DNA of 64,000 nucleotides from an uncultured virus (IMG/VR IMGVR_UViG_2061766007_000286). Taxonomy: Duplodnaviria > Heunggongvirae > Uroviricota > Caudoviricetes. Positions 9-57,677 of the stretch are shown in pieces. Position 1 is the stretch's first letter. Each line of letters opens with the position of its first letter. The translations under genes were made by a program, and so were the position numbers. Below the pieces are notes generated by a model. It did not search any database. It had not been told where the DNA came from and saw only the letters and a program-made list of their open reading frames with translations. The stretch lies in the IMG/VR virus record IMGVR_UViG_2061766007_000286. One strand, written 5' to 3'.

Positions 9-233
9 TTAAGCCTTCACCATGACGTTCTGGCTGATGCGGAGCTTTTCACTCTTGTCAGCCTTGGCCGTCAGATGAATGCGATGCCGCTTGTCGGGAC
101 GGGCATCGGCGACCACCCACTTCTTCTGGGAAGTGATGTGGCGAACGACGTCGCCGTTGCGGAACTTGGCACCGCCACGAACTTCGATGGTGGTAACCTT
201 GCCGTTGACAAGTCGGATGTTCATCTTCTGCAT
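9..233 (-). CDS. small basic hypothetical protein (near-identical inverted copy at 10137-10363)
   Basis: ORF MQKMNIRLVNGK with AAAGGAG SD, directly downstream of the promoter at 281-310. Confidence 0.6.
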   Translation of the reverse strand: MQKMNIRLVNGKVTTIEVRGGAKFRNGDVVRHITSQKKWVVADARPDKRHRIHLTAKADKSEKLRISQNVMVKA

Positions 234-12706: not shown

Positions 12707-13429
12707 ATGACCAAGCAGGAAGAAATCACGTCTCTCGTCAAGGTCATCCGCGAACACGATTATCAGCCGGCCAGGGAACGTCTGTACGGTCTGATCGAAA
12801 ACTTCATCAGGGACATGGCCAAGAAGTATTCCAACGACCTCGTGTCCGTGGAAGAACTCGTCGGCGCCGGTTGGGATGGCGTCAACACCGCCATCGAAAG
12901 GTGGGACGAAAGCCGCGAATCTTTCCTCACCTACGCCCGCTGGTGGATCATGGACGCCCTCGACAAGGAGCGCATGGCTCACAGCGACCTGATCAGCGTG
13001 CCGCTCATTCTCCGCAAGCACGTCATGCGGCATCTGAACGACGCGAGCACCAAGGAACCGGCTCACTTCGCCGAAGCCGTGGCCGCTCTCGGTGCCAGCC
13101 GCACCGAAGACCGAATCGGGAACGAGCGGGACGTCGATGTCCGCGGTTCCGGGGAAGCGAACGCGGAAGGCTGGTATCCGAAGGACGAGAAGGCGATGGA
13201 CGAAGAGAAGATGTCGCTGGCTCTCGATGTGGAAGGATTCATCAACAGGCTCGACGCTCTCGAAGGGAAGATCTTCCGCATGCATTACGGGTTCAACGAC
13301 GAGCAGGTCGAGTACTCCAACAAGGAGATCGCCAAGACTCTCGGCCTCACCGCCGCCAGGGTCAAGTTCCTTCTCGACAAGTCCGTGCTCAGCGCCCGCG
13401 AATGTCTCGCCGGGTACGAAATCAAATAA
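12707..13429 (+). CDS. sigma70-family RNA polymerase sigma factor
   Basis: region 2 ARERL...MAKKY...EELVGAG...AIERWD...FLTYARWWI; region 4 YSNKEIAKTLGLTAARV. Confidence 0.85.
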   Translation: MTKQEEITSLVKVIREHDYQPARERLYGLIENFIRDMAKKYSNDLVSVEELVGAGWDGVNTAIERWDESRESFLTYARWWIMDALDKERMAHSDLISVPLILRKHVMRHLNDASTKEPAHFAEAVAALGASRTEDRIGNERDVDVRGSGEANAEGWYPKDEKAMDEEKMSLALDVEGFINRLDALEGKIFRMHYGFNDEQVEYSNKEIAKTLGLTAARVKFLLDKSVLSARECLAGYEIK

Positions 13430-19841: not shown

Positions 19842-19855
19842 AAAATACTATATTA
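19842..19855 (+). promoter_or_regulatory. AAAATACTATATTA promoter for tRNA-Pro
   Basis: exact motif 10 nt upstream of the tRNA. Confidence 0.75.
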
Positions 19856-19865
19856 TAGGTATTAG

Positions 19866-19938
19866 CAGGGTGTACGCCAACCGGTAGACGGAATGTTTTG
19901 GGAACATTCAGATGAAGGTTCGAACCCTTTCACCCTGA
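19866..19938 (+). tRNA. tRNA-Pro(UGG)
   Basis: CAGGGTG/CACCCTG; AATGT-TTTGGGA-ACATT; GAAGG-TTCGAAC-CCTTT. Confidence 0.85.
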
Positions 19939-19943
19939 TAGAG

Positions 19944-20068
19944 AGGTCCGTTCCCGACGTCGTAGCTTAATAACTGTTAGAGCGCCCGTGCAATTTTGGG
20001 GATTAAAACAGGGGTTACCACTGCATGGGAGATGCGGGATAGTCCCGTCGGCGAAGGTGAACGGATTT
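19944..20068 (+). ncRNA. tRNA-like RNA with extended acceptor stem and 29-nt anticodon-position loop
   Basis: AGGTCCGTTC/GAACGGATTT; CGTCG/CGGCG; D-like TAGCTTAA...AGAGC; CCCGTGCA/TGCATGGG; GCGGG-ATAGT-CCCGT. Confidence 0.55.
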
Positions 20069-20122
20069 GGTTTTTTGGGGCACGCAAAAGATTTTTGTAT
20101 AAACCCCATGTTGGCCACTGAA

Positions 20123-20136
20123 AAAATACTATATTA
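20123..20136 (+). promoter_or_regulatory. AAAATACTATATTA promoter for the main tRNA/ncRNA operon
   Basis: exact motif; TATAAAC also present at 20098-20104. Confidence 0.75.
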
Positions 20137-20245
20137 TGGTTGTGAGGGCGACGACTCTCGATGGATGGTTGACAATCGTGTGTCTTTAGGTGCTATGCCC
20201 TATGCTTAATGCCGATGTGTGGTGACTCGGCGCCTTTCAGAATTT

Positions 20246-20399
20246 TACCCGTCGTCTACTTTTTATATCATTTTTTCCATAGACGGCGGGTGGGGTACCG
20301 GCTTTGTCTTGTTGGCCGGTACCCATCCTCTACGGGCGGTCTGCCAGTGCGTGCCATCCTCTATATGCCCTCCCTCCCAACCGCATTGGCAGACCGTCC
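20246..20399 (+). ncRNA. three abutting long hairpins with large pyrimidine-rich loops
   Basis: 13-bp (20246-20292), 10-bp (20293-20324) and 18-bp (20334-20399) stems; the first and third contain G.U pairs. Confidence 0.55.
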
Positions 20400-20495
20400 A
20401 ATCTTTTTCCCAGGTTTTAGGCCTTTCGTCATACGGCTTTTACCCAGGTTCGACTCCTGGGATGGCGATTTGAGCGCACGGCCGCCTGTGGAATT

Positions 20496-20567
20496 CACCC
20501 TGTAGCTCAAGAAGAAGAGCTTGTGCCGATTAAGCACAGGATCTTGGTGCAAATCCAGGCAGGGTGT
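20496..20567 (+). tRNA. non-canonical tRNA-like RNA (loop CG-ATT-AA)
   Basis: cloverleaf CACCCTG/CAGGGTG, GCTC/GAGC, TGTGC/GCACA, CTTGG/CCAGG; D-loop lacks GG, G at position 33, T-loop TGCAAAT. Confidence 0.6.
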
Positions 20568-20568
20568 T

Positions 20569-20639
20569 GTCCCCTCAAGCCTCTGTCAGCTGACAACTAC
20601 ATTTGCATGCGCCAACAGACATGCTAAAACGGAGGGGAC
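20569..20639 (+). ncRNA. stem-closed ~70-nt RNA with possible pseudoknot, followed by a U-tract
   Basis: GTCCCCTC/GAGGGGAC; GCATG/CATGC hairpin whose loop ACAGA can pair with TCTGT. Confidence 0.45.
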
Positions 20640-20652
20640 TTTTTTTGATACA

Positions 20653-20993
20653 TGGGGCTTGTGGCTGGTTTGCCACCGGTTGAGGTAAAAATCCTCCTGT
20701 CGTGAAGAGCCCTGGTGGAGATTGCAAGCGAAGCCAGGAAAGATAGCGACTGCTCATGCCTGTTCGTCGTAGGATGAGGTGATTCCTATCTGAGATAGTC
20801 CGGAAATATTGACAGCTAACCGCCGAGAACTATCATAGGATGGAATGTATGCCATAGCAACGTAGCCTTGGTCATGCAGCACAGAAATATCAGAGTTAGC
20901 GGCTGTGTGGAAGCCTTGTAGCGAAAGTCTGAAGACGACATGGACATGAGTTGAAATCCGTGATGAAGCAGGTTCAATTCCTGGGGTCCCACC
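20653..20993 (+). ncRNA. ~340-nt tRNA-capped RNA with tmRNA-like architecture (non-canonical)
   Basis: GGGGCTT/GGGTCCC-ACC ends; T arm CAGG-TTCAATT-CCTG with compensatory allele CTGG-TTCGATT-CCAG at about 21055; long-range helix 20753-20768/20934-20950. Confidence 0.5.
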
Positions 20994-21105
20994 CTTTTCC
21001 CGCGTAGCGTATAGCGGTTTCTAGGTCTCCGTGCACCTGTAGNNNNNNNNNNGTCTGGTTCGATTCCAGGGGTCCCGTCCTTTTCCCGCGTAGCGTATAG
21101 CGGTT

Positions 21106-21311
21106 TCTAGGTCTCCGTGCACCTGTAGCCTAGATTAACACAAAAGGTGCTCGACAATCCTAGACATCCCGCTCTGCTTAGGATTGTTCTTACACACGAG
21201 CGGGGATATCTTGGGTGACCGTGCGCATAGTCCAGGATAGATTAACAAGGCGCTCCAAACTTGGGTGTCTCTGTATATCTCACATCCAATGTTTCGACAT
21301 AGAGATATACA
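21106..21311 (+). ncRNA. array of four consecutive H-type pseudoknots
   Basis: TCTAGG/CCTAGA + GCACCT/AGGTGC; ACAATCCTA/TAGGATTGT + CCCGCTC/GAGCGGG; TATCTTGG/CCAGGATA + GCGC/GCGC; TTGGGTGT/ACATCCAA + TGTATATCTC/GAGATATACA. Confidence 0.65.
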
Positions 21312-21314
21312 CTC

Positions 21315-21386
21315 GCGCGTATCGTATAGCGGCTATTACCCCGCCCCTCCAAGGCGGAGACGCCGGTTCGATTCCGGCTACGCGCT
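21315..21386 (+). tRNA. tRNA-Gly(UCC), atypical C33
   Basis: GCGCGTA/TACGCGC; CCGCC-CCTCCAA-GGCGG; GCCGG-TTCGATT-CCGGC. Confidence 0.85.
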
Positions 21387-21398
21387 TTGACAGTTTGA

Positions 21399-21470
21399 TG
21401 CCTCATAACTCAGTGGTAGAGTGACCGGCTGTTAACCGGTTTGTCCCAGGTTCGAGCCCTGGTGAGGCAG
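21399..21470 (+). tRNA. tRNA-Asn(GUU)
   Basis: TGCCTCA/TGAGGCA; ACCGG-CTGTTAA-CCGGT. Confidence 0.9.
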
Positions 21471-21473
21471 TGC

Positions 21474-21562
21474 GAAGTCGTGATGCTCAAGTTGCTCTTC
21501 ATCTTAAGATGCGGAGCTAACAGACCAGAGGACTTGGGTGGGTGCTGGTCCCCGACGACTTC
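21474..21562 (+). ncRNA. stem-closed pseudoknotted RNA
   Basis: GAAGTCGT/ACGACTTC; TGCTCAAGTT/GACTTGGGTG; GACCAG/CTGGTC cross-pairing. Confidence 0.5.
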
Positions 21563-21572
21563 TTTCATTTGG

Positions 21573-21734
21573 GCGACCACCGAAAAACGTCGATACCATG
21601 CCGGAAACACCACATGTTTAGAGCGTGTTGCAACAGCATGGCCTCTCGGCGCTTCGTCAAGTAGCACGATAGGTGCGAGCCCTTAATCCTCCCTTCGTGG
21701 AGGCCCCTGGACCCGCAACGGGTTCGAAGGTCGC
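21573..21734 (+). ncRNA. multibranched RNA, ~160 nt
   Basis: GCGACC/GGTCGC closing stem; CCATGC/GCATGG, CCTCC/GGAGG and GGACCCG/CGGGTTC stems. Confidence 0.45.
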
Positions 21735-21808
21735 GCCCCATGTGGGGCGCGTGAGTTGAAACTGATGTAAAAGCCGAAAGGTTTTCCTATGGGTCTTGGG
21801 TGATGGTT

Positions 21809-21896
21809 TGGAATGGCAAGGGTAATGGTTTTATCTTAAAGTGGGGGTAATTCCACGCCATGAGTATCCGTTCATTGTAACGTCCTTGCCATTCCA
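21809..21896 (+). ncRNA. stem-closed small RNA
   Basis: 14-bp closing stem TGGAATGGCAAGGG/TCCTTGCCATTCCA. Confidence 0.45.
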
Positions 21897-21899
21897 TTT

Positions 21900-21984
21900 G
21901 GAAGTATGGCCGAGTGGTTTAAGGCGGAGATTTGCTAGGTCTCTGGAGGTAACACTCCCGAAGGTTCGAATCCTTCTGCTTCCT
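21900..21984 (+). tRNA. tRNA-Ser(GCU)
   Basis: GGAAGTA/TGCTTCC; GAGAT-TTGCTAG-GTCTC; long variable arm. Confidence 0.85.
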
Positions 21985-22007
21985 TTCAACGATGTATGTG
22001 ATATATC

Positions 22008-22082
22008 GGGCGATTAGCTCAGCCGGTTTAGAGCATCTGTTTTACACACAGAGGGTCACAGGTTCGAATCCCGTATTGCCCA
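22008..22082 (+). tRNA. tRNA-Val(UAC)
   Basis: GGGCGAT/ATTGCCC; TCTGT-TTTACAC-ACAGA. Confidence 0.9.
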
Positions 22083-22091
22083 TTTGAACAC

Positions 22092-22174
22092 GGAGGATTA
22101 GGCTAATTGGTAAGTCAGCGGTCTTGAAAACCGCCGTCCGAGAGGGCTTGGGGGTTCGAGTCCCTCATCCTCCG
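22092..22174 (+). tRNA. tRNA-Ser(UGA)
   Basis: GGAGGAT/ATCCTCC; GCGGT-CTTGAAA-ACCGC; long variable arm. Confidence 0.88.
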
Positions 22175-22177
22175 TTT

Positions 22178-22251
22178 GGAGCGGTAGCTCAGTTGGCTAG
22201 AGCGCTGGTCTGTCACGCCGGAGGCCACGGGTTCAAGTCCCGTCCGTTCCG
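22178..22251 (+). tRNA. tRNA-Asp(GUC)
   Basis: GGAGCGG/CCGTTCC; CTGGT-CTGTCAC-GCCGG. Confidence 0.9.
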
Positions 22252-22287
22252 TTTTGTTCTTGGGGAAACACCGGTTAGTCCCCCAAG

Positions 22288-22351
22288 GGAGCTTAGATAG
22301 GCAAGACCGACGCGACCTTGTCGACAAGCCCACGGAGGGTTTCTAAGCTCC
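22288..22351 (+). ncRNA. three-way-junction small RNA
   Basis: GGAGCTTAGA/TCTAAGCTCC; GGCAAG/CTTGTC; AGCCC/GGGTT. Confidence 0.45.
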
Positions 22352-22362
22352 TTAGAATTCAG

Positions 22363-22435
22363 AGGTCTATAGCTCAACTGGTAGAGCAGCGGTCTCCAAA
22401 ACCGCAGGTTGGAGGTTCGATTCCTTCTGGACCTG
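22363..22435 (+). tRNA. tRNA-Trp(CCA)
   Basis: AGGTCTA/TGGACCT; GCGGT-CTCCAAA-ACCGC. Confidence 0.9.
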
Positions 22436-22440
22436 GTTTA

Positions 22441-22513
22441 GGCGGCTTAGCTCAGTTGGTAGAGCAATTTCCTTGTAAGAAATAGGTCGTGTGTTCGAGA
22501 CACACAGCCGCCT
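22441..22513 (+). tRNA. tRNA-Thr(UGU), atypical body
   Basis: GGCGGCT/AGCCGCC; ATTTC-CTTGTAA-GAAAT; T arm GTGTG-TTCGAGA-CACAC. Confidence 0.82.
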
Positions 22514-22520
22514 CTAATTT

Positions 22521-22603
22521 GGGTCGGTGCCCGAGTGGCTAAAGGGGACGGACTGTAAATCCGTTGGCTTTTGTCTACGGTGGTTCGAATCCACCCCGGC
22601 CCA
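22521..22603 (+). tRNA. tRNA-Tyr(GUA)
   Basis: GGGTCGG/CCGGCCC; ACGGA-CTGTAAA-TCCGT; long variable arm. Confidence 0.9.
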
Positions 22604-22611
22604 TGAATGAA

Positions 22612-22680
22612 GACCGCTCCACTGAAACTCGGTAGCAAGTGGAGACCCGTTGGAATCGAGTTGTCGCGAACGGGTGGGTC
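22612..22680 (+). ncRNA. two-hairpin RNA with complementary (kissing) loops
   Basis: CTCCACT/AGTGGAG and ACCCGTT/AACGGGT hairpins; loops AACTCGGT and ATCGAGTT are complementary; GACC/GGTC closure. Confidence 0.55.
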
Positions 22681-22764
22681 GTTTTCCGTGACCCAGAATC
22701 AGTTGTCTAGGACAACCAAAGTCCCACCTCCAGCGTTCACTGTGTGGGGCAACGGAATACTTTT

Positions 22765-22837
22765 GCCAAAGTAGCTCAGTTGGTAGAGCAGCTGATTTGT
22801 AATCAGCCGGTCGTAGGTTCGACTCCTATCTTTGGCT
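22765..22837 (+). tRNA. tRNA-Thr(UGU)
   Basis: GCCAAAG/CTTTGGC; GCTGA-TTTGTAA-TCAGC. Confidence 0.9.
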
Positions 22838-22849
22838 TTTAACGATCTT

Positions 22850-22951
22850 TCCACTTCCGCCACGGATGCTGGTGGTATAGATGGGTAGGGCGCCCTGTCC
22901 CATTTAGTCGCGGTGATTCCCAGAGCTCTGGAGTTTACGAAGCGAGGTGGA
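22850..22951 (+). ncRNA. multibranched small RNA at the operon end
   Basis: TCCACTTC/GAGGTGGA closure; TAGATGGG/CCCATTTA inner stem. Confidence 0.4.
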
Positions 22952-22978
22952 TACAAGTTTTTCTTAATTCGGCGCCGA

Positions 22979-22992
22979 AAAATACTATATTA
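22979..22992 (+). promoter_or_regulatory. AAAATACTATATTA promoter for tRNA-Ile2 and tilS
   Basis: exact motif 8 nt upstream of the tRNA. Confidence 0.75.
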
Positions 22993-23000
22993 AGAATACT

Positions 23001-23074
23001 GGGACGATAGCTCAGTCGGTTAGAGCCCCCGACTCATAATCGGATGGTCGCCGGTTCAAGCCCGGCTCGTCCCA
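23001..23074 (+). tRNA. tRNA with CAU anticodon, most likely tRNA-Ile2 (lysidine)
   Basis: G1-C72, no three consecutive G-C pairs in the anticodon stem (not initiator), C29-G41 and C5-G68; 47 nt upstream of tilS. Confidence 0.8.
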
Positions 23075-23121
23075 CTACCATTTAACCGGTCGCAAGACCA
23101 ATTGAACGAGAAGGCACACGA

Positions 23122-24111
23122 ATGCGAGATCTCAGCCAGATCCTCGACAGCTCCATCGAGACCATCAATGGAAAATCCATTCTCATCGCGGTCTCCGGTG
23201 GAGCTGATTCCATGTTCCTGGCATGCGCACTCATCGAACTGCGCAACTCGCTCGACCTCAAGTTGGCAATCGCTTCCGTAGACCACTCCCTCAGGGAGGA
23301 ATCCGCGGAAGAACTAGCCTTCGTCCACGACTTCTCCATCGCCAATAAAGTTCCATTCTTCTCAGCCAAGCTCGTCCTTCCCAAGAACATGCCCAATGGC
23401 ATCGAAGCATGGGCACGGGAAGAACGATACAAGGAGCTGGAACGCATGCGCGCAGAATCCGGATGCGACTGGATCGCCACCGCCCATCACAGGAACGACC
23501 AGGCGGAGACCATCATGTTCAAGCTCGGCCGCGGCACCGGCGCCACCGGTCTAATGGGCATCCACGAGATCGACCAGACGCGCCATATCATCCGTCCAAT
23601 CATCAACTGCGATCCGAGGGAGATGCGCGAATACCTGCGCAGCCGCGGCCAGGAATGGCGAGAGGACCCCAGCAACCAGGACACCAAGTATTCGAGAAAC
23701 GAGATCAGGCACGAGCTTCTCCCGAAGTGGGAGTCCATGGAGCCTGGTATCACCGACGAACTCGTCCAGCTTGCCAACAAGGCGAACTCGATTATCCCAA
23801 AAATCTCAAATTGGGCGAAGAACATCTACAGGTTCGAAGAGACCGACCGTGGTTATTCTATCTCTCTCAGCCAGAGTGACATTGCCGAAGACGACGGATC
23901 GCTTCTCAGAATCGCAATGGACGACGTGTGGGGGAAGATGAACGTCGGATACCCCGGGAACAAAAGGTGGAGCCGCATCATCGATTGCGTCGTGAAGAAC
24001 AAGCGCTACTGCGAAGAGATCTCCAGCGGTGTCCGTGTGTGGGTCCGAAGCAGACACAACTCCCCGGTATTGTCCGTCGAAAGGATTGAAGGCGCGCCCC
24101 GCAAAAAATAA
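23122..24111 (+). CDS. tilS: tRNA(Ile)-lysidine synthetase
   Basis: AVSGGADS PP-loop, VDHSLR, AREERY, TAHHRNDQAET, IIRP, EDPSN, RNEIRH. Confidence 0.93.
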   Translation: MRDLSQILDSSIETINGKSILIAVSGGADSMFLACALIELRNSLDLKLAIASVDHSLREESAEELAFVHDFSIANKVPFFSAKLVLPKNMPNGIEAWAREERYKELERMRAESGCDWIATAHHRNDQAETIMFKLGRGTGATGLMGIHEIDQTRHIIRPIINCDPREMREYLRSRGQEWREDPSNQDTKYSRNEIRHELLPKWESMEPGITDELVQLANKANSIIPKISNWAKNIYRFEETDRGYSISLSQSDIAEDDGSLLRIAMDDVWGKMNVGYPGNKRWSRIIDCVVKNKRYCEEISSGVRVWVRSRHNSPVLSVERIEGAPRKK

Positions 24112-25332: not shown

Positions 25333-25608
25333 ATGCTCTATCGAAACACCAAAGAAATACTCAGAGAGATCCTCTACCACCCGACGCAGTACAAGGAGTT
25401 CGGGGCAATGGAGAGACTCACCGAGAAAGAACTCGCCTATGTGGTGCGATACAGGTTCGGTTCGTCATACATGACAGGAAGAAAAGTCGCTCACGTGTTG
25501 TTGCACGAGGATCCGATGGAGTTCATCAACAGGCATTTCCAGAGACGGAAACACAAGGACGATCCGAACAGGAACGCATTGCTGCTTCGAGTAGACGACG
25601 ACGAATAA
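25333..25608 (+). CDS. hypothetical protein
   Basis: ORF directly after TATAAAC at 25316-25322. Confidence 0.5.
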   Translation: MLYRNTKEILREILYHPTQYKEFGAMERLTEKELAYVVRYRFGSSYMTGRKVAHVLLHEDPMEFINRHFQRRKHKDDPNRNALLLRVDDDE

Positions 25609-25980
25609 AGTGTCCATGAATTGGGAACGGCGCGCTCCCAAAAATACTATATTACTGTATGGGGAGACGGTTGAAGCGGAAGTTCCGCCAGGTCGTCTCT
25701 GCACAACNNNNNNNNNNCTCGTCATACATGACAGGAAGAAAAGTCGCTCACGTATTGCTGCACGAAGATCCGATGGAGTTCATCAACAGGCATTTCCAGA
25801 GACGGAAACACAAGGACGATCCGAACAGAAACGCATTGCTGCTTCGAGTAGGCGACGACGAATAAAGTGTCCATGATTTGGGAACGGCGCGCTCCCAAAA
25901 ATACTATATTACTTTATGGGGAGACGGTTGAAGCGGAAGTTCCGCCAGGTCGTCTCTGCACAACGTAAAGGTAAAGTATT

Positions 25981-28278: not shown

Positions 28279-28329
28279 CGACAAAAACCTATATTATGGA
28301 CGGGAGGCGCGCCCTCCCGTTTCTTTTAT

Positions 28330-29373
28330 ATGCCGACTCCAAGACCGCACAAAATGAGAAAGTTCATATTGGGGAACATCGCGAGAGTCTCCATGAAGCA
28401 GCGTCTTACACACTACTGGACCTGGTCGACCGTGCAGAAGTGGAAGGAACTGGCGAAGCAGGCGCGCTTCGTAAACCCAGGCGCCGACGACAAGACCCAA
28501 TATCTCAACGTGCTCGAGCACCACATCGAATCGTTCTGTCCCAACGTGTACATGAAGATGTACTACGAAAACCTACCGCCAGAATGGCGGAATTCCATCG
28601 TACACCCCAAGAAGAACATACCCTTGGACCTGGAATGTGACAGCCGGTTCCCCAACATGAACATGGCCATCAAGCTAACGAATCTCAAAGAAGTGAAGGA
28701 ACCGTTCGGGAAAAACATGTTGAGAGCTGCACAGGCGTGCGCGGTAGCCAAACAAATGTCCGTCCGACTCGGACACGAGGTGCTGGTGGAATCGGATGGG
28801 TTTCTGTACGATCCGAAGCTGCTCGGCAGATGCCTGCTGGCCATGATAGGCCGCGGCAGCATACGGGTGTTCCGCGATCCGATCCGGCATTTCACCCCGA
28901 CTCTCATAAAGTGCGAAGACACGTCGGTCATCGTGATAAACCCAAGGTTCTACATAGACATACACGAATACTCCAAGGTGGACCTTCGCACGTTCGTATA
29001 CAAGGGGGAGTGGAACGACGCATTGCAGGAATACCTGGACGGCGGATATTCGAACGACCCGCACAAGTTCGGATACGTGATCGGCTGCATCGAGCGGGAC
29101 CTGGTCAAACCATACATCGCGAAAGTGCATGAGAAACTCGGATTGAAGAAGCCTTCCGGCGCCATATTCGAAGAATACAAGCGCGCCTGCATGAAGGAAA
29201 TAAACCCCGCCGGTCGGCCCGCAGAGGTCGTGGACATGTTCGAACGACTTAAGAAGTATTACACCAGGGTGTGCGAGATACTTGAGGATCCGAAAGCCGA
29301 ATACTCCGCCTGCGACCAGGAACTCAGATCCATGGCAGGGGAGTTGTTTGGTTCTTCAACGGAGAATACTTGA
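28330..29373 (+). CDS. hypothetical protein (ATA-rich codon usage)
   Basis: 347-aa ORF after an AAAACCTATATTA promoter variant. Confidence 0.6.
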   Translation: MPTPRPHKMRKFILGNIARVSMKQRLTHYWTWSTVQKWKELAKQARFVNPGADDKTQYLNVLEHHIESFCPNVYMKMYYENLPPEWRNSIVHPKKNIPLDLECDSRFPNMNMAIKLTNLKEVKEPFGKNMLRAAQACAVAKQMSVRLGHEVLVESDGFLYDPKLLGRCLLAMIGRGSIRVFRDPIRHFTPTLIKCEDTSVIVINPRFYIDIHEYSKVDLRTFVYKGEWNDALQEYLDGGYSNDPHKFGYVIGCIERDLVKPYIAKVHEKLGLKKPSGAIFEEYKRACMKEINPAGRPAEVVDMFERLKKYYTRVCEILEDPKAEYSACDQELRSMAGELFGSSTENT

Positions 29374-34583: not shown

Positions 34584-35222
34584 TTAGTTTCCTCCTCCGG
34601 CTCGGCAAGGTCGCCGAAAACAGCGCGGCACCGCTCCCTAAACGCCTCCTCCTTCTCCTCCTCCGTTTCGGGTGCGGCGAGGTCGAGGATAATGTCACGG
34701 AGGTCCTTCGCAATCACCACAGAGGCGTTGTGGAGGGCTAGGTTTCGCTCGTCATTTTTGTACCGCCACGTGTCCGTCTCCCGTACGTAGTCACGGATTT
34801 CCATCAGCCGTTCGCAGAGTTCGCGCTTTGTCATTTTTCATCCTCCTCAGTTTCGGTTCATTCTCCTTCCAGGNNNNNNNNNNTAGGAGGTCGCGGAGGG
34901 CGTTGCAGATATTATAGAACGTGGCAGTGCCAACGAAGCCACGGATAGCTGTCAGCTGTTTACGGAGTTCTCGCTTTGTCATTTTTCATCCTCCTCAGTT
35001 TCGGTTCATTCTCCTTCCAGGACATCCTTTTCGGCACAATACTCAGCATCGTGAATAATGCTGTCGATTTCCTTCTGCGAAATCCCATCGGCCAGCCACT
35101 TGTCCTCCATATCATAGGCCAACTTCCGAAACGCGTGCTCGGCTTCTCGCATCTTCAGCGCGAGAGGCAAAAGCATTCTAACGAACTCGAAGTGTTCATC
35201 ATGTGTCAAAATCTTTTTCTTT

Positions 35223-35885
35223 TTAGGCATGCTCATCCTCCTCGACCTCGACGTACTGCTTTGTACGGCGGTGGTTCAGTTCAATTCGAAGTCTGCCATG
35301 CTTGCGGGAAGCCTTCGCGTCTAAACATCCAAAAGCAAATTCCGCCTCTTCGCCGCCCGTGACGCCTGCGACGACCTTGGAAACCGCGCCCTCAATCGAG
35401 CCTCTCGCCCACGAAAACATCCGCTCGGGGGAGTCGGAGCAGATTTCCCATTCCGCGTCGGCCACCTTGCCGAAGTCGATTTTCTTGATGGCTTTCTCGC
35501 CAAGCGCAAGAAACTGCTCTTTGATGCTACTACCGGGAGCATTCCCCTCCTGGCATACCGGGTCTTCTTTTTTCTCCACAACAGTTCCGACCCCATTAAA
35601 CCCGGGCTTCTTCCCGCGATTGATGATATCGACCGCTCTATTCACATCCTCGACGACCCCATTCGCCGCGGTCCATGCATACATGATATACTGCTCCCCG
35701 AGAAACAGCAGGATCTCGTCCGGGAAAATCTCCACCCGGCCGCCATGTTCAAATCGGATCCGGTAAAACAACCCGGAAACATCGCCCACGTCCAACCCGA
35801 CACCAAGCTCATTGTGGGAAATCCCGCCTTTGTCCAGGATGGAAATCAGTTCCCCGACCAGATTGGTTCCATAAAATGAACTCAT
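35223..35885 (-). CDS. hypothetical protein
   Basis: 220-aa ORF with AAGGAG SD. Confidence 0.55.
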   Translation of the reverse strand: MSSFYGTNLVGELISILDKGGISHNELGVGLDVGDVSGLFYRIRFEHGGRVEIFPDEILLFLGEQYIMYAWTAANGVVEDVNRAVDIINRGKKPGFNGVGTVVEKKEDPVCQEGNAPGSSIKEQFLALGEKAIKKIDFGKVADAEWEICSDSPERMFSWARGSIEGAVSKVVAGVTGGEEAEFAFGCLDAKASRKHGRLRIELNHRRTKQYVEVEEDEHA

Positions 35886-35888
35886 CTT

Positions 35889-36311
35889 TCAGTTCTCCTT
35901 TTCATACTTTTCCTTGAGCCTCTTCAGTTCGGCCAGCTCATGTTCCCTGACCGATTCGGCTTCCTTGGCCTTCTGCTCGGCCTCCTTCGCTCTTTTCTGT
36001 GTCAGGATTTCCTCAAGTGTTTTGTTCAGAGCATCATCGGTCAATTCAAGCCAAGAAGCGGGGAAACGGCCAACCTCTTCATCTCTAATCCCGTTATAAC
36101 CGTAGTCATCATAGACTACTCTATCAAAGCCAATCATTTTATCATCAGTAGTCAAATCCCACCAATCGGCACTTTTTTGTGCGCTCGGGCATATCGCTTT
36201 CATGTATTTGCCGTAAACCTCATTGCAACGGTCATTGAGGATTTCCCGGTCAAAAATGATTCTCCGGATGTCTTTGATGGTGTATAGCACCTCTTCGATA
36301 GAGTATGACAT
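35889..36311 (-). CDS. hypothetical protein with charged C-terminal helix
   Basis: ends EHELAELKRLKEKYE; GGAGG SD. Confidence 0.6.
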   Translation of the reverse strand: MSYSIEEVLYTIKDIRRIIFDREILNDRCNEVYGKYMKAICPSAQKSADWWDLTTDDKMIGFDRVVYDDYGYNGIRDEEVGRFPASWLELTDDALNKTLEEILTQKRAKEAEQKAKEAESVREHELAELKRLKEKYEKEN

Positions 36312-36914
36312 CTCAGTCCTCCTTCTTCTTTTTCATGTTGCGTTCATAAGCCAGCATGTCTTTCCTTGTCCGCCCAATCATACGCAGACAAGTCGCAACG
36401 TTCTCCAGTGCAATATCCATCGTTTTGTAGTCAGCACGGCTGGCGTTGGAACCAAAACCTCTTGCGGCATCTTGCAACCACCCGTTTGCGTTTGCAAGAC
36501 TTCTCTGCAAATCCTTTCTAAAATCATGAATAGCACTCATCTTTCAGTTCTCCTTATTGAGATCGATATTCGGCGGGGCATCCCCGGTCCGTTCCACGAT
36601 GAACTGTCCCTGGAACGACTTGTATACCTTCTTTCCGTTCTTGTCCAGAACAAACGTCGCCATCATCGAACTAGCGTTCTTGCTGGTGAAGATGACCTTC
36701 CAATCAACGACATTCCTCAGAACAGCGATCGGTTCCCCGGACATCGAATAAATTTTCACAATGTTCATTTCTCAGTTCTCCTTCTTCATCTTCAGAGTAA
36801 GTTCCTTCAGCTGCGCCATGACCTTCGCCTTCGACTTCCTGTCCAATCTCATCTTTCGCATTTCAGTTCTCCTTTTTGAACGCCCTCTGGATATAATATA
36901 GTATTTTCCGCGCC

Positions 36915-36980
36915 AAAAAGAAAAGGGACCCTGGATGTGGCTCCGGGTCCCGCTAGGTCAGGAGATATATGGATAACAAC
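36915..36980 (-). ncRNA. putative small RNA 1 (antisense to SD+AUG) with its own promoter and terminator
   Basis: promoter 36986-36999; body GTTGTTATCCATATATCTCCTGACC; GGGACCC/GGGTCCC hairpin plus TTTTCTTTTT. Confidence 0.6.
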
Positions 36981-37006
36981 ACTCTTAATATAGTATTTTC
37001 CCTGGC

Positions 37007-37072
37007 AAAAGAAAAGGGACCCTGGATGTGGCTCCGGGTCCCGTTAGGTCAGGAGATAATATGAATAGCAAC
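37007..37072 (-). ncRNA. putative small RNA 2
   Basis: promoter 37078-37091; body GTTGCTATTCATATTATCTCCTGACC; same terminator. Confidence 0.6.
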
Positions 37073-37133
37073 ACTCTTAATATAGTATTTTCCACGGCCG
37101 AAAGTAAAAGAAAACCCCNNNNNNNNNNCCCGT

Positions 37134-37190
37134 AAAGAAAAGGGACCTGGAAAAACCAGGTCCCGTAAGGACAGGAGCATACATTATGAT
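37134..37190 (-). ncRNA. putative small RNA 3 (divergent, possibly allelic to RNA 2)
   Basis: promoter 37196-37209; body ATCATAATGTATGCTCCTGTCC; GGGACCTGG/CCAGGTCCC plus U-tract. Confidence 0.55.
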
Positions 37191-38364
37191 GTCTATAATA
37201 TAGTATTTTCCACGGCCGAAAGTAAAAGAAAACCCCCTAGCTGGTNNNNNNNNNNAGCATGCTTTTCCTTGTCCGTCCAATCAGACGCAGACAAGTCGCA
37301 ACGTTCTCCAGTGCAATATCCATCGTTTTGTAGTCAGCACGGCAGGCACTGGAACCAAAACCTCTTGCGGCATCTTGCAACCACCCATTTGCGTTTGCAA
37401 GACTTCTCTGCATATCCTTTCTAAAATCATGAATAGCACTCATCTTTCAGTTCTCCTTATTGANNNNNNNNNNCGATATTGTATGACATCTCAGTCCTCC
37501 TTCTTCTTTTTCATGTTGCGTTCATAAGCCNNNNNNNNNNNNNNNNNNNNNNNNNNNNNNNNNNNNNNNNNNNNNNNNNNNNNNNNNNNNNNNNNNNNNN
37601 NNNNNNNNNNNNNNNNNNNNNNNNNNNNNNNNNNNNNNNNNNNNNNNNNNNNNNNNNNNNNNNNNNNNNNNNNNNNNNNNNNNNNNNNNNNNNNNNNNNN
37701 NNNNNNNNNNNNNNNNNNNNNNNNNNNNNNNNNNNNNNNNNNNNNNNNNNNNNNNNNNNNNNNNNNNNNNNNNNNNNNNNNNNNNNNNNNNNNNNNNNNN
37801 NNNNNNNNNNNNNNNNNNNNNNNNNNNNNNNNNNNNNNNNNNNNNNNNNNNNNNNNNNNNNNNNNNNNNNNNNNNNNNNNNNNNNNNNNNNNNNNNNNNN
37901 NNNNNNNNNNNNNNNNNNNNNNNNNNNNNNNNNNNNNNNNNNNNNNNNNNNNNNNNNNNNNNNNNNNNNNNNNNNNNNNNNNNNNNNNNNNNNNNNNNNN
38001 NNNNNNNNNNNNNNNNNNNNNNNNNNNNNNNNNNNNNNNNNNNNNNNNNNNNNNNNNNNNNNNNNNNNNNNNNNNNNNNNNNNNNNNNNNNNNNNNNNNN
38101 NNNNNNNNNNNNNNNNNNNNNNNNNNNNNNNNNNNNNNNNNNNNNNNNNNNNNNNNNNNNNNNNNNNNNNNNNNNNNNNNNNNNNNNNNNNNNNNNNNNN
38201 NNNNNNNNNNNNNNNNNNGTTTGGCCTTTTGACAGTCTTTTGACAATGTTTTGATTGGTTTTTGTTGGTTTTCACATNNNNNNNNNNTCCACCCACTTGT
38301 TAAGGATCTCTTAAAAACTCTTTAAAACATCCCGTTATAAACAAATTCCAGGGAGGGATGCAAC

Positions 38365-40860: not shown

Positions 40861-41036
40861 AAGAACCATACCTAACGCCTCCCTATAATACTATAAAAGG
40901 AACCATGGTTATATTACCATAGTCCCCTATTATTCTGTATGGACCTGCTTCTTATTATTGGTCTTTCAGGCAGCTGACATATACCATCAGTCTTGTTCCA
41001 TATAAACTTTATGCGACACAGTTCTCGGTATGTACA

Positions 41037-42197
41037 ATGTCCAGATTCAGCAAGTGTGAAATTGAGTTTCTCGGGTCTCTTAGAAAAGTCGGTCTTTCCA
41101 GATCTCTTTGCGAAAGCGTGAATGAAATTAGAAGGGCTCTCTTTGAATCTGAGACAGGTTCCGGCAGGGCGAAGATTAAGCGTGTTCTGTTCAAAAATCT
41201 GTTTGGTGTTGCCCATGTTCTTTGGACTTTCCCATGCTCCCCTATTACAATCATAACAGGTCTCAATGGATCCGGGAAGACCACGCTCATCAATTTCATC
41301 GGCTACTTCCTTAGCGGAGCTCCTGAATTCAGAGCAAAGGTATCACGGACAAAGTTTGACCGCGTCACGTTCAAGACCGAGGACGGGGATTTCGCATTTA
41401 CCAAGGACGATCTGGACGAAATGGCCGGAAAGGGAAATTCCACCGTGAAAATCGTTTCAGTGAAAGACGATTCCGACAATCTGGATGGCATATTCAACAC
41501 ATCCGGCGAGTTGGAGTCGGTAGCCAACGCTTCCGGCGCCGACATCGACACTTTCATTAAAATCCTCAATAGGTATGGGAAACACTCGTTCGTTCCGAAA
41601 ACATATTCGATCGAGGACGGGAGGGTTGTCATCCACAGCGATTCTGGGGACCTTGGCATAGACGATCTCTCCGATGGAGAACGAGCGGTGGTGTCTATGT
41701 GGTATGACATACTTTTTTCTCCGGTGGACGTTCTGCTCGTCGAAGAACCGGAAAGAACTCTGCACATTGTTCTGCAGCATAATTTCATAGACGACTTGAA
41801 AAGAGTATGCGACAGTACCGGGAAGCGGGCGATTGTCGTCACCCATTCCCCGCACATCGTTCTCGACAATGATGACATGTTGCCCGAATCGAGAAGCATT
41901 GCCGGTTCGTCATACGACTTGGATGCCGAGGACGAAAGCTACAGGAAAAAGTTAAAGGAATGCAGTGGAGACAATTACGCCATGGAGGAGTCTGAGTGGG
42001 AGTGGAAAAACGGGATACTTGATGACTTCAAAGAGATCGGCAAATTCGACTACGAAAAGCACGATGCGATCATGAATAAATGGGAAGAGAAGCATTTTGG
42101 TCATGACTTCAATTTCCGCATATTTGAAATGGAGAATCCCGGGTTCATTGAAAAATGGGACAAGGAACACAAGACCGGGGACGAGAACGAGTCCTAA
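41037..42197 (+). CDS. ABC-type (AAA_15/AAA_21-like) ATPase with N-terminal leader
   Basis: Walker A GLNGSGKT, signature LSDGE, Walker B LLVEEPE..LH, H-loop VTHSP. Confidence 0.85.
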   Translation: MSRFSKCEIEFLGSLRKVGLSRSLCESVNEIRRALFESETGSGRAKIKRVLFKNLFGVAHVLWTFPCSPITIITGLNGSGKTTLINFIGYFLSGAPEFRAKVSRTKFDRVTFKTEDGDFAFTKDDLDEMAGKGNSTVKIVSVKDDSDNLDGIFNTSGELESVANASGADIDTFIKILNRYGKHSFVPKTYSIEDGRVVIHSDSGDLGIDDLSDGERAVVSMWYDILFSPVDVLLVEEPERTLHIVLQHNFIDDLKRVCDSTGKRAIVVTHSPHIVLDNDDMLPESRSIAGSSYDLDAEDESYRKKLKECSGDNYAMEESEWEWKNGILDDFKEIGKFDYEKHDAIMNKWEEKHFGHDFNFRIFEMENPGFIEKWDKEHKTGDENES

Positions 42198-57537: not shown

Positions 57538-57677
57538 CCGCGGCCTGGAGTAAAAGAAAACCCCCTAGCTGGTTGCCCAGTAGGGGGAAGAGTCATTCNN
57601 NNNNNNNNCTGCAGACAGAAAAACGGAAACGGCGCCGTTTCCAGCGCCGTCTCCCCACAGAAGCTAGGTATGTTTTA

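Follow-up and report, generated by a model that had tools for sequence, protein, structure and literature searches.

The sar RNA of phage P22 is a phage-encoded antisense RNA that acts on a ribosome-binding site (RBS), and the LhrC genes of Listeria monocytogenes each possess their own promoter and terminator, several of them lying adjacent to one another. The available text on the latter describes LhrC1-5 as multicopy, CU-rich sibling small RNAs (sRNAs) whose single-stranded sites bind mRNA and impede translation (PMC4132741). In phages P1 and P7, the c4 antisense RNA blocks an RBS and small differences switch its specificity (heteroimmunity), as outlined in the accessible sections of a review, which there deals mostly with RNAs of prophages and temperate phages (PMC12197685). 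For virulent Pseudomonas phages, the accessible part of an ONT-cappable-seq study reports non-coding RNA (ncRNA) candidates that are either derived from a 5' untranslated region (5'UTR) or stand-alone (PMC10914365). The subject of the present analysis is an array of three putative sRNA genes on the minus strand of a 64,000-nucleotide (nt) stretch of DNA from an uncultured virus placed in the Caudoviricetes (IMG/VR record IMGVR_UViG_2061766007_000286); this whole stretch is referred to below as the window.

Between positions 37209 and 36894 on the minus strand, four exact copies of the word AAAATACTATATTA were found, three of which lead sRNA-like units (U1, U2 and U3) while the fourth leads protein genes. 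Allowing for <=2 mismatches, the word occurs at 26 sites in the window, 17 of them exact, against an expectation of 0.08, and none of 100 shuffles reached 26. Copies precede protein genes across the window and also tRNA-Pro and tRNA-Met, at a distance of 8–10 nt. The word is a genuine phage promoter that also drives RNA genes; its placement 8–10 nt before the two tRNA genes indicates that it is able to drive non-coding RNAs, with a start very near the motif. In each unit the promoter is followed by (i) an arm of 31–35 nt without stable structure, (ii) a GGGACC..GGTCCC hairpin, (iii) a UUUUCUUU(U/A) tract, and (iv) a few spacer bases. A pattern search found this hairpin three times in the 64-kb window (expected, 0.06), on each occasion in one of these units, and it is hence not a generic terminator of the phage. 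A preliminary description of the locus had proposed three stand-alone minus-strand units running from promoter to terminator and free of open reading frames (ORFs). All three are present, their arms are predicted to be accessible and carry CAU..CUCCU, and no conserved ORF was detected on either strand of the units. We are fairly confident that they are discrete transcription units, predicted to yield RNAs of 60–67 nt.

Read in the direction of transcription, U3 comes first. Its promoter (37196–37209; -10 element TATATT) is an exact copy of the phage promoter word, and its 5' arm, or seed, delimited by sequence and folding, spans 37165–37195 with CAUCAU at 37191–37186 and CUCCU at 37177–37173. 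The intrinsic terminator of U3 (37133–37164) was recovered by a terminator scan and by folding (z = -3.6); it consists of a 9-bp GGGACCTGG/CCAGGTCCC hairpin (37164–37142) followed by UUUUCUUUA (37141–37133). U2 has a copy of the promoter word at 37078–37091, an arm at 37043–37077 (CAU 37063–37061, CUCCU 37055–37051; sequence and folding) and a terminator at 37007–37042, identified by folding and pattern search, in which a GGGACCCGGAGCCACATCCAGGGTCCC hairpin (37042–37016) precedes UUUUCUUUU (37015–37007). The corresponding elements of U1 are a promoter copy at 36986–36999, an arm at 36952–36985 (CAU 36971–36969, CUCCU 36964–36960), again placed by sequence and folding, and a terminator at 36916–36951 supported by repeat comparison, folding and pattern search; its hairpin (36951–36925) is identical to that of U2 and is followed by the same UUUUCUUUU (36924–36916). 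The fourth promoter copy (36894–36907) lies outside any sRNA unit; it is followed by AAAAAGGAGAACTGAAATG and drives a 29-amino acid (aa) ORF (36861–36772) and then the 74-aa and 75-aa genes.

Start-to-start distances between the promoter-led repeats are 92, 92 and 118 nt, such that the unit length of about 90 bp given in the preliminary description holds for two spacings but not for the third. The surplus of 26 nt, located between U3 and U2, comes from an exact 41-nt duplicate of a terminator-promoter junction (37078–37118 is 100% identical to 37196–37236). Within this duplicate lies the remnant of the terminator tail of another unit, termed X (GGGGTTTTCTTTTAC, 37104–37118, minus strand), the junction itself being hidden beneath one of two masked runs of 10 N (37119–37128 and 37246–37255) that conceal two junctions.

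The arms were unpaired in both the minimum free energy and the centroid folds, in which the terminator hairpin was closed, and the predicted probability of being unpaired amounted to 0.91–0.93 for CUCCU (U1, 0.91; U2, 0.93; U3, 0.93) and 0.62–0.92 for CAU. Every arm contains CAU-N4-8-CUCCU, a pyrimidine-rich seed complementary to a Shine-Dalgarno (SD) sequence plus AUG. The plus-strand words AGGAG-ATAT-ATG, AGGAG-ATAAT-ATG and AGGAG-CATACATT-ATG-ATG are indeed there as quoted in the preliminary description, but the statement that each arm is their exact complement is trivial, since they are merely its opposite strand. At the DNA level, CAT-N4-8-CTCCT occurs at 54 sites in the window. Inside the block of minus-strand genes at ~30.5–39.5 kb it is found at 13 plus-strand sites, in the orientation expected opposite minus-strand gene starts (they were not checked singly), and at three minus-strand sites, which are the arms. 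By chance, the motif appears in 0.8% of random 33-nt windows and in 0.2–0.4% of shuffled arms; its occurrence in the arms is unlikely to be accidental, though not overwhelmingly so, there being ~26 promoter-proximal regions open to notice.

Comparison of the units with one another revealed that U1 (36999–36916) and U2 (37091–37007) are near-duplicates (52 nt at 98%), with four differing positions in arm and linker and further differences in the post-terminator spacer. U3 (37209–37133) has an arm and a loop of its own and has CUCCUG-N-CCU-NN-CGGGACC..GGTCCC-UUUUCUUU in common with the other two. The suggestion that unit 3 might be an allele of unit 2 is mistaken: it is U1 and U2 that form a sibling pair, whereas separate orthologues of U3 exist in the related contigs. 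Given the duplication that links U1 to U2, and given that CUCCU is part of the scaffold common to all three units, the motif represents one or two independent events rather than three. Neither same-sense nor antisense copies of the arms were recognizable elsewhere in the window, the best local alignments falling within the shuffle null. Searching the whole window against Rfam 15, only tRNAs passed the gathering score; at E <=10 the array gave one sub-threshold, terminator-like match, to ctRNA_p42d, whose 17.7 bits fall well below the gathering score of 50 for that family. Two other explanations of the arms were considered and rejected. An attenuator would need an alternative anti-terminator pairing, and one (GUCC/GGAC) was found in U3 only and is weak; a 10-mer that the U2 arm shares in the same sense with the start of the flanking 75-aa gene, as if the arm were a gene stub, is a chance match (score 21, equalled by 103 of 150 shuffles).

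A metagenome scan for the exact promoter and stem, which diverged members of the family would escape, retrieved three contigs (L001, L002 and L003), all of the U3 type. A U3 homologue is intact in all three, in differing neighbourhoods, with CAUCAU and CUCCU kept and the arm core ACATCATAATGTAT[G/A]CTCCT (as RNA, ACAUCAUAAUGUAU[G/A]CUCCU) retained throughout. There is one change in the 20-nt core of these homologues, as against ~7 in 35 nt of linker, hairpin/loop and 5' tip. The earlier observation of a variable spacer between constant elements (CUCCU, CAU and the terminator stem) thus holds both among the units and across the related contigs (3/3). It does not extend to every neighbour of the same build. 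In L001 the series opens with U3, and next comes X (130–215, plus strand), a further promoter-arm-terminator unit with the arm GGUACGCACACAAAAGAGAAUGACUCUU and the hairpin CCCCCUACUGG..CCAGNUAGGGGG; in L003, the order is X (3160–3075, minus strand), U3 and the 29-aa ORF. In both contigs X is promoter-driven and ~65 nt long. This sister unit lacks CUCCU.

In the window, by contrast with these relatives, U1 and U2 are additional and X is left only as terminators, at 37245–37224 and at 57572–57556 on the minus strand. The former (37224–37245) comprises the 3' half of the X terminator with its U-tract (ACCAGCTAGGGGGTTTTCTTTT) and closes a truncated paralogue of the 75-aa gene upstream of U3; the latter, CCCCCUACUGG..CCAGCUAGGGGG, stands as a second terminator behind a gene for an HSP20-like protein, with no promoter before it. 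When L003 (2985–2700, minus strand) is set against positions 36861–35223 of the window, a deletion of ~1.4 kb becomes apparent, which removes the 74-, 75- and 140-aa genes and leaves the 29-aa ORF continuing in frame into the final ~45 residues of the 220-aa protein. In a DNA contig from sequencing run X1, position 36985 is joined directly to 37196, so that U2 and U3 are missing and U1 is the sole unit; either the copy number truly varies or the assembler may have collapsed the repeats. The modular nature of the array, as put forward in the preliminary description, is accordingly visible as recombination shuffling, the number and order of units differing among the window, L001 and L003.

We tentatively favour, by analogy of shape, the reading that the units encode trans-acting sibling sRNAs that would block translation initiation. 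Each unit would be transcribed from the phage's own conserved promoter, with a start a few bases past TATATTA, and transcription would end at the unit's own hairpin and U-tract, giving an RNA of ~60–67 nt. The first ~30 nt would be single-stranded and would offer CAU, 4–8 nt and CUCCU, followed by the constant scaffold CUCCUG-N-CCU-NN-CGGGACC..GGUCCC-U tract. Were such an RNA to accumulate, it might pair in trans with the translation-initiation region of one or a few mRNAs, over SD and AUG, and thereby bar the 30S subunit from the mRNA; candidate sources of these mRNAs would be the host, phage DNA beyond the window, or a rival phage. Because the promoter and terminator modules are identical, unequal recombination between them would duplicate and reshuffle the units, and would have produced the U1/U2 pair. 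The labels "translational silencing" and "retargetable" used in the preliminary description reflect this shape alone, and the silencing of SD-led mRNAs in general, which it had also entertained, is unlikely: pairing with the common phage RBS AAGGAGAACUGAAAUG is limited to 5–6 bp (UCUCCU:AGGAGA), which makes a general effect implausible.

A more specific version of the favoured reading would see in the array of this virulent T4-like phage a set of plug-in antisense cassettes, in which a constant terminator scaffold carries exchangeable 5' seeds, each fitted to the RBS and start codon of a specific foreign mRNA; we regard it as a speculative and rather improbable extension. The target could then be a host toxin mRNA, from a type I toxin-antitoxin or abortive-infection system whose antitoxin RNA decays after phage shut-off, or, alternatively, an essential early gene of competing phages, which would amount to exclusion by RNA comparable to the heteroimmunity of P1/P7. 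By recombining at its identical modules, the phage could rapidly gain, lose and vary seeds (U1 vs U2, and the unit sets of the window, L001 and L003).

Several results weigh against trans-acting sRNAs, among them the outcome of the target searches, which covered the window, L001–L003, IMG/VR and 185,579 species genomes; the two likeliest sources of a target, the genome of the host and the phage DNA beyond the window, lay outside these sets. Searching the sets for complements of the arms brought to light no target above chance in any of them. For the window the preliminary description had already reported no perfect target, and repeated searches agreed. In the window and L001–L003, no arm-complementary site was found at <=3 mismatches, no arm complement in 25–28-mers at <=6 substitutions, and no exact complementary run >=9 nt at a gene start; a duplex-energy scan returned only G-U-rich, bulged matches, and local alignment of the arms against shuffles gave nothing above chance in either sense. 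The conserved 19-mer that U3 would target, AGGAGYATACATTATGATG, has no occurrence in IMG/VR and six matches in the species genomes (one genome per species), where a crude estimate assuming uniform composition gives ~9. Three of these lie at unrelated gene starts in unrelated taxa, namely Eisenbergiella, a Campylobacteraceae metagenome-assembled genome (MAG) and an Oscillospiraceae MAG, and encode what we take, by eye, to be a bactofilin-like N-terminus, an rpoA-like protein and a ferritin-like protein, respectively; the other three are intragenic, in Flavobacterium and Cytophaga. When the U1 target was sought at <=3 mismatches in three of the genomes matching AGGAGYATACATTATGATG, one match with 3 mismatches resulted. 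The six genome matches of AGGAGYATACATTATGATG are at the level of chance. A degenerate U2-like target gave six matches in IMG/VR, five of which are identical copies of one AT-rich phage gene start (MDNNLAND...); none is exact to either arm, and they were judged to be chance.

The remaining points on this side concern the phage and its relatives. No Hfq or ProQ RNA chaperone was found among 70 window proteins compared with Pfam. The relatives are close (~96–98% in neighbouring coding sequence and ~88% in intergenic sequence), so retention of CAU and CUCCU is expected even without selection and is no proof of it, and the contrast between 1/20 and 7/35 changes is not significant. Unit X, with the same build, adjoins U3 in L001 and L003 and has neither CUCCU nor CAU-N-CUCCU; the build alone hence does not imply a function directed at ribosome-binding sites. 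U1, U2 and U3 probably stem from one ancestral unit, in which case the motif may be a single historical event. Finally, the array sits in a patchwork of duplicated and truncated genes, and junction products without function tend to build up in such surroundings. Of the 75-aa gene (MSAIHDF...) there are at least two copies, one downstream of the array (36540–36313) and one upstream (37443–37237) that is truncated into a terminator, as well as a C-terminal remnant (37491–37530, minus strand), and between these copies, at ~37488–37474, lies a 5-codon stub of the start of the 140-aa gene (MSYNI).

These features invite the explanation that the units are by-products of the shuffling of terminator-promoter modules, perhaps transcribed without any sequence-specific job, with CAU..CUCCU as an inherited accident; at most they would be a series of four or five terminators insulating downstream genes from read-through. 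We regard this as the main rival, somewhat less likely than the favoured reading. In addition to the multiplied and truncated 75-aa gene and the 140-aa-gene stub, it would account for the exact 41-nt junction duplicate (37078–37118 and 37196–37236), for the X hairpin that recurs at 37245–37224 and, without a promoter, at 57572–57556, for the CUCCU-less unit in L001/L003, for the ~1.4-kb deletion in L003 with its 29-aa/220-aa fusion, for the joint between 36985 and 37196 in the X1 contig and for a promoter-like word standing directly before a terminator hairpin at 28283. The empty target searches point the same way. On the other hand, the GGGACC hairpin and the arms are unique to the units, whereas obvious debris such as the X remnants and gene stubs is recognizable as copies. 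Moreover, U3 is intact in three differing neighbourhoods, the chance rate of the motif is low (0.2–0.8%) and its position is the most accessible part of the RNA, and the joint seen in X1 may have arisen in assembly, through the collapse of repeats that exceed the assembler's word.

A control scan bears on whether the strand has been read correctly. Searching IMG/VR for the scaffold pattern CTCCT-N7-9-GGGACC..GGTCCCTTTT gave 15 unrelated matches; six of these proved to be the back of an arrangement of terminator, SD and real gene start, with ORFs of 80 and 236–238 aa and a T-run on that strand, while eight had no start codon within 3–15 nt and one had a 21-aa ORF. A sequence antisense to SD and AUG beside a hairpin is thus usually the reverse side of a gene start. 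Applied to the array, this would mean that the plus strand is the one that matters, AGGAG..ATG marking either where tiny peptides begin or the fossil traces of gene starts that were inverted; the RNAs of the minus strand would then be cis-antisense in the manner of a type I toxin-antitoxin system. The U1 and U2 ORFs are well spaced from their SD sequences. The plus-strand ORFs of U1, U2 and U3, however, are merely 31, 24 and 5 aa long; those of U1 and U2 cross the minus-strand promoter, and that of U1 also runs through the neighbouring unit's hairpin. The U3 ORF is not conserved, reading MMSII* in the window and L003 and MMCL* in L001. On its plus side the hairpin is not followed by a T-run, the plus strand at 28.3–38.3 kb contains neither class of promoter (see below for the second), and the flanking genes are all on the minus strand. 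In view of these findings, a plus-strand function is very improbable. Two toxin-antitoxin arrangements do not fit the array. Type I systems have a small, conserved and usually hydrophobic toxin ORF that is overlapped by an antisense RNA, and the opposite-strand ORFs here (31, 24 and 5 aa) are unconserved among units or relatives. ToxI-like RNAs of type III systems are tandem short repeats on one transcript, located beside the gene of an endoribonuclease toxin that processes them; in the array every unit starts at a separate promoter and ends at a separate terminator, and neither the 74-aa nor the 75-aa ORF downstream has a Pfam or PHROG family.

Alternatively, the RNAs might be decoys or sponges instead of translation blockers, titrating a protein or an RNA, for example an RNA-binding regulator, a nuclease acting on GGAG/CUCC or a host defence sensor. 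Several near-identical copies behind a strong promoter would provide a high dosage, and it is the scaffold CUCCUG-N-CCU-NN-CGGGACC that is best kept among U1, U2, U3 and the relatives. We counted on the same side that T4 uses proteins which target GGAG and initiation regions to control its early mRNAs. No candidate partner is encoded nearby, however, the neighbours having no Pfam or PHROG family, and the loops of U1/U2 and U3 are wholly different and hence offer no conserved motif. This explanation appears improbable to us. Within it, a further possibility is that the units prime or activate replication at a transcribed origin. T4 origin transcripts form R-loops, unlike the units here, each of which ends at a strong terminator; in addition, GC skew in the window tracks gene direction and has no extremum at the array.

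Public sequencing data provided limited information on expression. Four runs were placed on 35200–37463, all as contigs, which cannot show small RNAs and break at the 41–52-nt repeats. The single RNA run (X12) yielded one perfect contig of 166 nt (36609–36774) within the 74-aa gene and no coverage of the array, which was likewise uncovered in runs X5 and X6 (contig data). Run X5 is a small DNA run carrying a single-organism label. It contains a 3-kb contig that covers 35200–36358 with 6 differences and ends inside the 75-aa gene, and could point to a culture carrying the phage.

The phage itself looks virulent rather than temperate and is an uncultured, distantly T4-like phage of the cattle gut. 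Its family-B DNA polymerase is T4 gp43-like at only ~27% identity, and 48 of the 70 window proteins scanned had no Pfam family at E <=0.001. Parts of a 1.2-kb stretch around the array were recovered from 21 public runs in 11 studies, mostly recorded as bovine gut; a blastn search of GenBank phages with this region gave no match, and IMG/VR held 0 matches to the promoter-plus-hairpin pattern and no relatives detectable through the 220-aa neighbour, the 75-aa neighbour or the DNA polymerase. The array is situated in an early-gene region with recombination scrambling, where the neighbouring 74-, 75-, 140- and 220-aa proteins belong to no Pfam or PHROG family (the 29-aa ORF was outside that scan).

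A second promoter-like word, TATAAAC, which we take to resemble the T4 late promoter TATAAATA, has 13 sites in the window (for example 38336+, 41001+, 49543+, 52547-, 54637- and 39559-) and lies 25–40 nt before several gene starts. The preliminary description had remarked that genes of this class lack an obvious SD. This is correct for the leaders at 41001, 49543, 52547 and 54637 (genes 41037, 49582, 52510 and 54604, respectively), which have no clear SD, but the leader at 38336 has GGGAGGG. One of these genes (41037–42197, plus strand) encodes an AAA/ABC-type ATPase of 386 aa; its AAA_21/AAA_15 domains are of the kind present in AbiEii-like and OLD/SbcC-like proteins. The phage also encodes a sigma factor of its own, a 240-aa protein with a sigma-70 region 2 domain (12707–13429, plus strand; Pfam E 3e-8), which may read one of the two promoter classes.

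Additional observations were made on the promoters and RNA genes of the window. A cluster of 13 tRNA genes (19842–23075, plus strand) is followed by a gene for a TilS-like PP-loop protein (23122–24111, plus strand; Pfam E 2e-51); it includes a tRNA-Asn with anticodon ATT (20496–20567) that was called by ARAGORN and is not listed by the Rfam tRNA model. At 20123–20495 (plus strand), a promoter is followed by ~360 nt without a convincing ORF but with long G+C-rich inverted repeats; the segment, which has no Rfam match, may represent another promoter-driven non-coding RNA. Positions 25596–25700 and 25853–25960 (plus strand) form a near-identical pair, each with ~45 nt of upstream sequence, a promoter and a leader hairpin GAGACG..CGTCTC, the second of which enters a gene start. 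The promoter-like word at 28283–28330 (plus strand) has 2 mismatches; a stop codon precedes it and a terminator hairpin (GGGAGGCGCGCCCTCCC plus T-tract) follows it, and a transcript from it would measure ~25 nt.

To our knowledge, a function has been assigned to few of the small RNAs encoded by strictly lytic phages. If the units do silence chosen mRNAs, they would constitute a cheap and quickly re-aimed RNA tool for host takeover, counter-defence or phage-phage competition; the tool would be present in an abundant but uncultured group of rumen phages, and its scaffold could serve as a model for a small repressor that can be programmed. Should they be debris, they would still illustrate clearly the scrambling that identical promoter-terminator modules cause in early regions of large phages.

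Full-text literature searches returned no paper on tandem sibling sRNAs in a phage. With LhrC1-5, as presented in the available text, the array shares several near-identical small-RNA genes with CU-rich single-stranded sites, although the pairing proposed here is inferred from shape. The LhrC RNAs are bacterial, stress-induced and equipped with three redundant UCCC sites, whereas each phage unit has one CUCCU together with an anti-AUG in a 5'-terminal arm, and there is no sequence or Rfam relationship between the two. The switch of specificity of c4 by a change at few positions, as far as it is covered in the accessible sections of the review, parallels the differences between the U1 and U2 arms. 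In the c4 and sar systems, the target lies within the immunity region of the same phage and c4 is processed from a longer transcript; the array, in contrast, has no complementary site in 64 kb, a plus-strand transcript is not expected (there is no such promoter at 28.3–38.3 kb), and the phage looks virulent. The ncRNA candidates of Pseudomonas phages are similar in that, in the part of that study available, a promoter lies closely before a terminator and gives short non-coding transcripts in lytic phages. They are described there as arising when transcription stops prematurely, before it reaches a gene that the transcript would otherwise include, while in the array each terminator is followed by a fresh promoter, and the units are tandem siblings with a common seed. 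What is new here is the phage setting and the apparent exchange of seeds on a fixed scaffold.

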